Shown piece after piece: positions 3,001 through 4,200 of a DNA stretch of 4,200 nt. A program made the position numbers. The stretch's first letter is position 1. Each line of letters begins with the position of its first letter. Source of the DNA: a virus (Duplodnaviria; Heunggongvirae; Uroviricota; Caudoviricetes); the IMG/VR virus record IMGVR_UViG_2648501338_000006, positions 1-4,200 of that record; one strand, written 5' to 3'.

Positions 3001-4200
3001 TACAGAAGCATGTGACGGTGGATGAGGTACATCCGGTTCTGCAGGCGATGGTGGATGACGCTGTGGGGACCATTCCGGTACCGCGTGATGGTCGTGATTA
3101 TGATCCGGATGTACTGCAGCAGGCGGTGAATGATGCGGTTGCGAATATTCCGGTACCGGCGGACGGCAAAAGTATCACCCCCGATGATGTGCGTCCGATG
3201 CTTGAGCAGATGGTGAAAGAGGCCGTAAGCCATATCCCTGCTCCGCGTGATGGTCGTGATTATGATCCGGAAGTACTGAAGCAGGTGGTGAATGATGCTG
3301 TCGGGAGCATTCCTGTACCGGCAGACGGCAAAAGTATCACCCCCGATGATGTGCGTCCGATGCTTGAGCAGATGGTGAAAGAGGCGGTAAGCCATATTCC
3401 TGTTCCGCGTGATGGTCGTGACTACGATCCGGAAGTACTGAAGCAGGCGGTGAATGATGCGGTCGCGAAAATACCGGTGCCGGCAGACGGCAAAAGTATC
3501 ACCCCCGATGATGTGCGTCCGATGCTTGAGCAGATGGTGAAAGAGGCCGTAAGCCATATCCCTGCTCCGCGTGATGGTCGTGATTACGATCCGGAAGTAC
3601 TGAAGAAGGCGGTTCTGGAGGCGGTGAATGCCCTGCCGGCTCCGCAGGACGGGCGTGATGCCACGGCACTGGAAGTGCTCCCCGCTATTGACGATCAAAA
3701 ATCCTTTCCCCGGGGCACGTATGCCACACACCTGGGAGGACTCTGGCGGGCGTATGAAAAAACGCACGGGATGCGGGGATGGGAATGCCTGGTTGACGGG
3801 GTGGCGGATATCGACGTCAGCATGACGGAGGAGCGGTTGTTCTCTGTGGTGATCCGGCACAGCAGTGGCCAGCGTACGGAAAAAACATTTTCCCTGCCGG
3901 TGATGCTCTACCGCGGTGTGTTCAGAGCCGGTGAAACCTACCACCCCGGCGATACGGTGACGTGGGGGGGCTCGCTGTGGCACTGCAACAGTATGACCGG
4001 TGATAAACCCGGAGAAGCTCATTCATCAGGCTGGACCCTGGCTGCAAAACGTGGACGGGATGCAGGAGGCGGAAAATGACGGCATTACTGACACTGGAAG
4101 AGATCAAGGCACATCTGCGTGTTGACCATGACGCGGATGATGACATGCTGATGGACAAGGTTCGTCAGGCTACCGCCGTGCTGCTGGCCTACATTCAGGG

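Follow-up and report, generated by a model that had tools for sequence, protein, structure and literature searches.

The 4,200-nucleotide (nt) stretch of tailed-phage DNA analysed here (positions 1 to 4,200 of the IMG/VR virus record IMGVR_UViG_2648501338_000006, Caudoviricetes; hereafter the window) contains an open reading frame (ORF) of 407 amino acids (aa), named ORF-X, between the genes for a portal protein and a head-tail adaptor. Close to its C-terminus is a motif resembling the carbohydrate-binding modules of families 5 and 12 (CBM5/12). The motif very probably belongs to a genuine, divergent module of the CBM5/12 fold, the second of two such modules in tandem, and is homologous in fold to these families. 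The canonical aromatic platform for sugar binding is missing from it. On balance, we lean slightly towards reading ORF-X as a portal-tethered stalk protein, whose repurposed CBM5/12 core would bind a conserved partner. A glycan-binding tip on a capsid fibre, which had been suggested from the sequence only, is a partly supported function and is in tension with the linkage to the portal.

The CBM5/12 fold of the C-terminal domain

The sequence-only reading had located the motif at nt 3925-4045, which is right within three codons. The + strand at nt 3924-4046 translates to RAGETYHPGDTVTWGGSLWHCNSMTGDKPGEAHSSGWTLAA, and the peptide quoted at that time (ETYHPGD...GWTL) corresponds to residues 360-395 of ORF-X (nt 3933-4040). 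The claimed resemblance to CBM5/12 was borne out by the Pfam search, the relatives, the profile of module 2 and the structural matches. CBM_5_12 (PF02839) was the sole Pfam match of the last 144 aa (E=1.6e-4, model positions 3-29 of 44), and its score of 22.1 bits is below the gathering score of 26.2, so that the curated cut-off was not reached. PF02839 was also matched by 15 of 16 close relatives scanned singly (best E=3.1e-7). Of 100 distant members of the family, each representing a cluster at 50% identity (hereafter the 100 representatives), 65 matched it as well (best E=6.3e-8). Precomputed PF02839 matches are also on record for relatives from Klebsiella, Salmonella, Enterobacter and metagenomes that are 55-70% identical.

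A profile was made from the alignment of the flagged module alone and run against the sequences of solved structures. The tandem CBM12 of a Vibrio chitin-oligosaccharide deacetylase was matched at E=1.2e-5, the chitin-binding domain (ChBD) of Pyrococcus furiosus (2RTS) at E=2.3e-4, and the ChBD of Bacillus circulans ChiA1 (1ED7) at E=0.016. The baseplate protein All3316 was also among the matches (E=2.5e-4). A single-sequence phmmer search of ORF-X against the PDB sequences returned only designed helical repeat proteins at chance level.

The AlphaFold model of the 144-aa domain had a mean predicted local distance difference test score (pLDDT) of 80, with 91-93 over the motif, and showed the small antiparallel β fold (~45-60 residues) of the CBM domains. 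Foldseek comparison with the PDB again returned CBM families; the E-values were weak, as is expected for a module of 45 residues, and the target-normalised TM-score was 0.55-0.68 for isolated ChBDs. The structural neighbours of the domain model include the endoglucanase Z CBD and 1ED7 lower in the list, with phage tail fibres interspersed.

The first module is CBM5/12-like and degenerate. The profiles of the two modules could be aligned by hhalign (E=4e-4 over 34 columns) with an identical motif order, and both modules are kept at a constant spacing of 78 aa across the family representatives. The same small β fold is found in CBM5 and CBM12 domains, such as 1ED7, 2RTS, Serratia ChiB, Streptomyces ChiC (2D49) and the Vibrio pair. 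The likeness includes the motif order (Y-x-x-G-D-x-V-x-aromatic-x-G-x-x-aromatic ... P ... W) and the core residues Y362 and W393; the tandem CBM12 pair of the Vibrio deacetylase also resembles the two modules of ORF-X. However, there are several differences. ORF-X has N/D-E and S in place of the surface Y-W/W-W pair and the third Tyr, its modules are split by a three-stranded insert, and it is a cytoplasmically assembled virion protein instead of a secreted glycoside hydrolase.

Binding residues and candidate ligands

The CBM5 domains have two core aromatic residues (Y265 and W299 of CjCBM5) and a consecutive surface Y-W or W-W pair, of which the pair is important for chitin binding (PMC8449059). 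A third surface Tyr contributes in some CBM5 domains, including 2RTS, and the CBM12 domains use Trp687 (PMC8449059). The core aromatic residues are kept in ORF-X: 2RTS has its core Tyr and Trp at the positions of Y362 and W393, which are Tyr in 92% and Trp in 99% of the 100 representatives, respectively. In the HMMER alignments, N378-S379 stand opposite the surface Y-W pair of 2RTS and S390 opposite its third Tyr; D383 takes the place of the Trp in the Vibrio CBM12 ‘DWAP’. No aromatic residue is among the six commonest residue types of the 100 representatives at positions 378-380 and 382-383, where N, D, E, Q, K, A, P, T and S are found instead. K384 is Lys or Arg in 93% of them. The Trp687 loop of ChiA1 is presumably shortened to x-D-K-P-G in ORF-X, as suggested by an alignment to the ChiA1 sequence.

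All three CBM5 surface positions are polar or acidic throughout the family, so the glycan-binding tip is not established. The alignments indicate that the CBM scaffold is retained and its canonical aromatic platform is lost. Carbohydrate binding may still occur, but the name of the family is no evidence for it. The proposal of a glycan-binding tip on a repeat stalk is supported for the stalk, with its 3.3 copies of a 162-nt repeat, and is not supported for the tip. The adhesin reading also suffers from the distribution of conservation. Among phages with very different hosts, no other part of the protein is as well conserved as the C-terminal domain, which is the opposite of what would be expected from a host-specific adhesin tip. 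Since the β domain is conserved across unrelated hosts and the platform has been lost, a conserved partner is likelier. Most likely, the β domain would bind such a partner. Candidates are a ubiquitous polymer, such as DNA or the glycan strand of peptidoglycan, and another protein of the virion; a host-specific surface polysaccharide is an unlikely ligand. Should a polymer be its ligand, the domain would represent a CBM5/12 variant with a non-aromatic binding surface.

Linkage of ORF-X to the portal protein

The gene order portal-X-adaptor is kept in E. coli, in the Salmonella phage FSL SP-016, in the Rhizobium phage RHph_X2_26 and in metagenomic contigs. The portal stop codon of the relatives overlaps the start codon of X (ATGA). 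The G tract ahead of ORF-X is polymorphic: five residues (G5) leave portal and X as separate genes, as in the window, and six (G6) join them into an in-frame portal-X fusion. Exact DNA pattern scans of IMG/VR found G5 at 49 loci and G6 at 39 loci, i.e., the fusion is present in ~44% of the E. coli alleles. The uncut and undisrupted G6 loci have one open frame of 812-1028 codons with both the portal motifs and the CBM motif. The G alleles are mostly lineage-specific; two haplotypes with identical 650-nt flanks differ in the G count. The phage 2851, which we take to be a viable transducing phage, is annotated with one coding sequence (CDS) of 859 aa, and BP-4795 with two CDSs. A homologue search using the N-terminal 81 aa gave short fragments only and was uninformative on fusions, as the word-index search seems to favour size-matched proteins.

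A second type of fusion was found in a distant relative (P0146, 1237 aa), in which the portal is joined to a different, longer stalk followed by the same C-terminal domain. This protein is identical in four contigs from different samples and lies within a complete head-tail module. No clear ribosome-binding site was seen ahead of its internal Met. The recurrent portal-X fusions suggest a physical link of X with the portal C-terminus, and an association of ORF-X with the portal is likely. A decoration of the capsid shell, as implied by the earlier idea of capsid-mediated adherence, is disfavoured by the gene position between portal and adaptor and by the fusions to the portal C-terminus, both in E. 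coli and in the unrelated lineage. The G run (G_GGG_G) and the sequence A_AAA_TGA at the portal stop (2851-2859, 10 nt downstream) are conceivable sites of -1 slippage, through which a fusion could be made from a G5 allele.

Placement in the virion and alternative explanations

In the portal-tethered reading, X would be held by its N-terminus at the C-terminal (crown) region of the portal, as a low-copy component of the portal vertex that most simply projects into the head interior. One extra G or an ancestral fusion makes X the C-terminal extension of the portal itself in many relatives. In the allele of the window, X is a separate ORF with its own Shine-Dalgarno (SD)-like G5 run. In the known portal structures, the C-termini make up a crown turned towards the inside of the head. 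With this topology, the fused forms would have X inside the head, and the free X is most simply assumed to be at the same place; by this analogy, the chances of an interior, crown-associated location are about even. Some relatives have collagen repeats in the place of the stalk, which suggests that ORF-X is probably trimeric.

A more specific form of this placement is tentative and rather doubtful. X would be a new portal appendage, a stalk either detachable or joined by fusion that hangs from the crown inside the head, whose repurposed CBM fold acts on a universal ligand (such as the packaged DNA end, or peptidoglycan after release), and the choice between free and tethered X would be set by the G5/G6 tract that doubles as the SD site. 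Ribosomal slippage at G_GGG_G or A_AAA_TGA might give both products from one allele. If X is located on the portal crown, it would be a new portal-vertex component of HK97-like siphophages, at a site that controls genome packaging and release. The phages 2851 and BP-4795 would then be a natural pair of fused and unfused forms for its study.

Several observations weigh against the portal-tethered reading. One junction haplotype accounts for 32 of the 37 G6 loci with enough flank, which suggests that the E. coli fusions arose only a few times, possibly in prophages undergoing decay. As the internal SD and ATG persist in the fused E. coli alleles, free X could be produced from these as well. The topology of the crown is that of portals in general and was applied to this portal by analogy, and no internal head protein of such kind is known to us. 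The nearest structural neighbours in BFVD are collagen-repeat, tail-fibre and CBM5/12-annotated proteins, the PHROG tail-fibre families match ORF-X weakly, and the PDB neighbours include tail fibres. The Pfam score under the gathering threshold belongs here as well. Moreover, no virion proteomics, imaging or solved structure was found for the ORF-X protein or a virion homologue.

These tail-fibre neighbours would be more readily explained by an external head or neck fibre, which is the best of the alternatives and is possible, although clearly less probable than tethering at the portal. Free X trimers would be attached by their N-termini outside the portal vertex, neck or capsid, and the CBM pair would bind polysaccharide. 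Reversible binding to a cell-surface glycan, biofilm matrix or mucus could raise the rate of host encounter. The fold of the domain is that of carbohydrate-binding modules, and the stalk length changes in steps of 54 aa, as in exposed fibres; the collagen stalks of the relatives, the own SD and ATG of ORF-X, and the name ‘carbohydrate binding domain protein’ of some relatives in database records are all in line with this explanation. However, the three surface aromatics of CBM5 are missing family-wide, and conservation among phages of unrelated hosts is highest in the supposed tip, the remainder of the protein being variable. An external fibre is also hard to reconcile with in-frame portal fusions in the characterised phage 2851 and in an unrelated lineage without an obvious internal start, and the gene is not beside the capsid gene, the usual place of decoration genes. 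If X is such a fibre, it would be an accessory adhesin on the medically important Shiga-toxin phages.

A purely structural function is unlikely. The CBM-like modules would serve as protein docking sites or trimer caps without an external ligand, and X would be dispensable or decaying. This would fit the loss of the binding aromatics and the truncation ahead of module 2 in 11 of the 66 E. coli alleles. It is at odds with the strong conservation of the domain, which has 870 representatives at E<=1e-30 and invariant surface-type residues such as D366, K384/P385 and K398 (K398 and G400 are invariant in the 100 representatives). Such conservation points to a selected interaction, possibly still with a protein.

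Least probable of all is an internal protein that leaves the crown with the DNA, analogous to SPP1 gp7/MuF, and grips the peptidoglycan glycan strands during entry. Peptidoglycan and chitin share a β-1,4-linked backbone containing N-acetylglucosamine, and the conservation across hosts fits a universal ligand. The slot directly downstream of the portal gene is that of MuF/gp7, which are portal-bound at 1-2 copies per capsid (PMC5576092), and portal fusions exist. However, ORF-X has neither a MuF domain nor the aromatic platform, a portal-fused X would need cleavage for ejection and no cleavage site was identified, and the tail channel would have to let trimeric collagen-like stalks through.

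Comparison with other phage proteins

Structural use of the same fold is known from Cis13 (All3316) of a contractile injection system. Fibres with collagen stalks and ChiC_BD modules include BFVD entries of uncultured Caudovirales, gp47 of the Pseudomonas phage Pa193 and the tail fibres of the Agrobacterium phage 7-7-1. These are encoded by tail-module genes; whereas the ORF-X gene is located between portal and adaptor, and is recurrently fused to the portal. The gene place directly downstream of the portal is shared with SPP1 gp7 and Mu gpF (MuF). The MuF proteins bind the portal in low copy number, and some have variable C-terminal extensions (PMC5576092). Compared with the MuF polymorphic toxins, the architecture of ORF-X is reversed, with conservation in the C-terminal domain and variability in the N-terminal stalk, and the MuF domain is missing.

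The fused alleles of ORF-X also resemble the portal barrel of the P22 type, as they add a long extension to the portal C-terminus that, given the general topology of portals, would reach from the crown into the head. However, no sequence relationship exists between them. ORF-X has a segmented acidic stalk and a β domain instead of a continuous coiled-coil barrel, and about half of the alleles encode it as a polypeptide of its own. The function that was first proposed for ORF-X is that of T4 Hoc, the phi29 gp8.5 head fibres and SPP1 gp12, to which no homology was detected. SPP1 gp12 and phi29 gp8.5 are trimeric fibres, and gp12 is collagen-like. The genes of Hoc, gp8.5 and gp12 are found beside the capsid gene or elsewhere, in contrast to the position of the ORF-X gene between portal and adaptor.

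Family distribution and annotation

The family profile search found 7779 cluster representatives at E<=1e-3, with 870 at the stricter threshold given above. Nearly all members have 200-660 aa and end with the domain. It is this C-terminal domain that is conserved among the 7779 representatives, and the stalk and N-terminus vary. A collagen-like G-X-Y stalk is present in 21 of the 100 representatives (Pfam Collagen, best E=3e-21), e.g., P0114 and P0117; the Pfam scan found no collagen repeat in ORF-X itself. Its members are encoded in the head modules of lambdoid prophages of E. coli, Salmonella and Klebsiella, Shiga-toxin-converting ones among them, and also in phages of distant hosts. No study of the ORF-X protein was found in the literature on Shiga-toxin phage portals and carbohydrate binding, collagen and neck fibres, the phage 2851, C-terminal extensions of portals, All3316 and the binding residues of CBM5 and CBM12, and NCBIfam has no model for it.

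The names of the homologues are variable, including ‘phage portal protein’, ‘phage gp6-like head-tail connector protein, partial’, ‘carbohydrate binding domain protein’ and ‘hypothetical protein’. ORF-X had no Phage_portal match even at E<=10, and the name ‘portal protein’ was rejected. PHROG 2271 (859 aa, ‘portal’) is composite: its positions 1-421 match the true portal and 455-859 match ORF-X. PGAP marks portal and X as one frameshifted portal gene. The names ‘portal protein’ and ‘gp6-like head-tail connector’ are therefore artefacts propagated from fused or neighbouring genes. Homology to MuF was also rejected, as no MuF domain (PF04233, PF06152 or related) was found in Pfam at E<=10 or in the PHROGs. 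The Pfam matches to TetR_C_35, DUF4244, FliG_N and similar models lie on the repeat helices below the cut-offs, and were regarded as repeat or coiled-coil noise.

The interest of ORF-X comes mainly from the size of this uncharacterised family and from the unexpected portal fusion. It is a very large family for which no characterised function was found in the literature, and the renaming of the systematically misnamed ‘portal protein’ and ‘head-tail connector’ entries would improve the annotation of thousands of prophages.

Organization of ORF-X and the neighbouring genes

Three parts make up ORF-X: a helix at the N-terminus, an acidic stalk that varies in length, and the C-terminal β domain of 144 aa (Table 1). 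The start of the helix (~25 residues) is conserved in the alignment as M-x-ERELS-I/L-I-x-A-x-GEEF, and the helix is presumed to be a segment for attachment or oligomerisation. The stalk consists of helices of 13-17 residues split by linkers rich in P, D and G (IPxPxDG...). These features are secondary structure only, since the stalk has a pLDDT of 35-60 in the AlphaFold model of the full-length monomer. The E. coli prophage alleles encode ORF-X of 245, 299, 353, 407, 461, 515 or 569 aa, i.e., in steps of the 54-aa repeat.

Table 1. Features of the window in order of position.
Feature	Position (nt)	Strand	Evidence or remark
Protease-capsid fusion, C-terminal part	31-1284		Pfam Phage_capsid; PHROG 617 positions 237-626
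Conserved 73-aa hypothetical ORF	1329-1550		Between capsid and portal genes
Portal gene	1496-2827	+	Pfam Phage_portal PF04860 E=2.3e-80
G5 run, Shine-Dalgarno-like, 11 nt upstream of ORF-X ATG	2840-2844	+	Sequence
ORF-X, 407-aa stalk protein with the motif	2856-4079	+	ORF list
N-terminal long helix, aa 1-55	2856-3020	+	AlphaFold helix 3-51, pLDDT 73-86
Acidic segmented stalk, aa 56-263	3021-3644	+	Net charge -17; model secondary structure
162-nt (54-aa) tandem repeat in stalk	3081-3613	+	TRF: 3.3 copies, 92% matches
Module 1, degenerate CBM5/12-like, aa 276-318, FPRGTYATHLGGLW...GWEC	3681-3809	+	hhalign vs module 2
Three-stranded β insert between modules, aa 319-347	3810-3896	+	DSSP of AlphaFold model
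Module 2, CBM5/12-like, holds the flagged motif, aa 348-400	3897-4055	+	
Basic G-X-Y-like C-terminal tail, KRGRDAGGGK	4047-4076	+	Alignments
Head-tail adaptor start (gp6-like connector)	4076-4200	+	NCBIfam TIGR01560 E=5e-8; annotation in relatives

The strands of the insert between the modules are residues 53-61, 65-72 and 77-83 of the 144-aa domain (pLDDT 86-91). Module 2 is followed by the basic tail, which is longer in relatives (GRDGKDGKDGKDL..KGVSI) and has G-X-Y triplets and then a conserved KGVSI end. Since the chain runs on in this way, module 2 is not strictly the tip of the protein. Residues H292, C311, H376 and C377 (nt 3729-3731, 3786-3788 and 3981-3986) are conserved in 95, 95, 74 and 85% of the 100 representatives, respectively. 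Such conservation of His and Cys is unusual for a cytoplasmically assembled β domain; the two His and two Cys may form a structural metal site that joins both modules.

The window has 96-97% identity with the head module of long-tailed Shiga-toxin-converting and related lambdoid E. coli prophages (94 phage records). Its portion from nt 2700 to 4200 was found in 1247 of 5426 complete E. coli genomes, where it often occurs in several copies. A protease-capsid fusion of ~645 aa has the major capsid protein as its C-terminal part (Peptidase_S78 and Phage_capsid; 3815-5788 in locus L098). The portal gene is located downstream of the capsid gene, unlike in HK97, where it is upstream; this order is common to the E. 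coli, Salmonella and Rhizobium phages and the metagenomic relatives. The 73-aa ORF between them matched no model of NCBIfam, the sole library scanned for it. Its last 55 nt lie within the portal gene as annotated (start at 1496), and the real portal start may be further downstream.

The portal gene of the window has a 1-nt deletion near 2755 (2748-2760), by which the last ~25 codons are out of frame and encode an unrelated tail up to the stop at 2827. Alignment with the phage WGPS2 and the strain UTME-9 showed that an A is missing after GGGAAAAC; the window reads GGGAAAAC-GTTTCAG and the relatives GGGAAAACAGTTTCAG. Among the IMG/VR loci, 19 had the intact portal end and one the deleted form. 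It reflects either an error in sequencing or a prophage copy in decay, this deleted form. The undeleted portal frame would end at the TGA that overlaps the ATG of ORF-X. At the other end of ORF-X, the ATG of the adaptor overlaps the stop codon of ORF-X in the same manner (ATGA).

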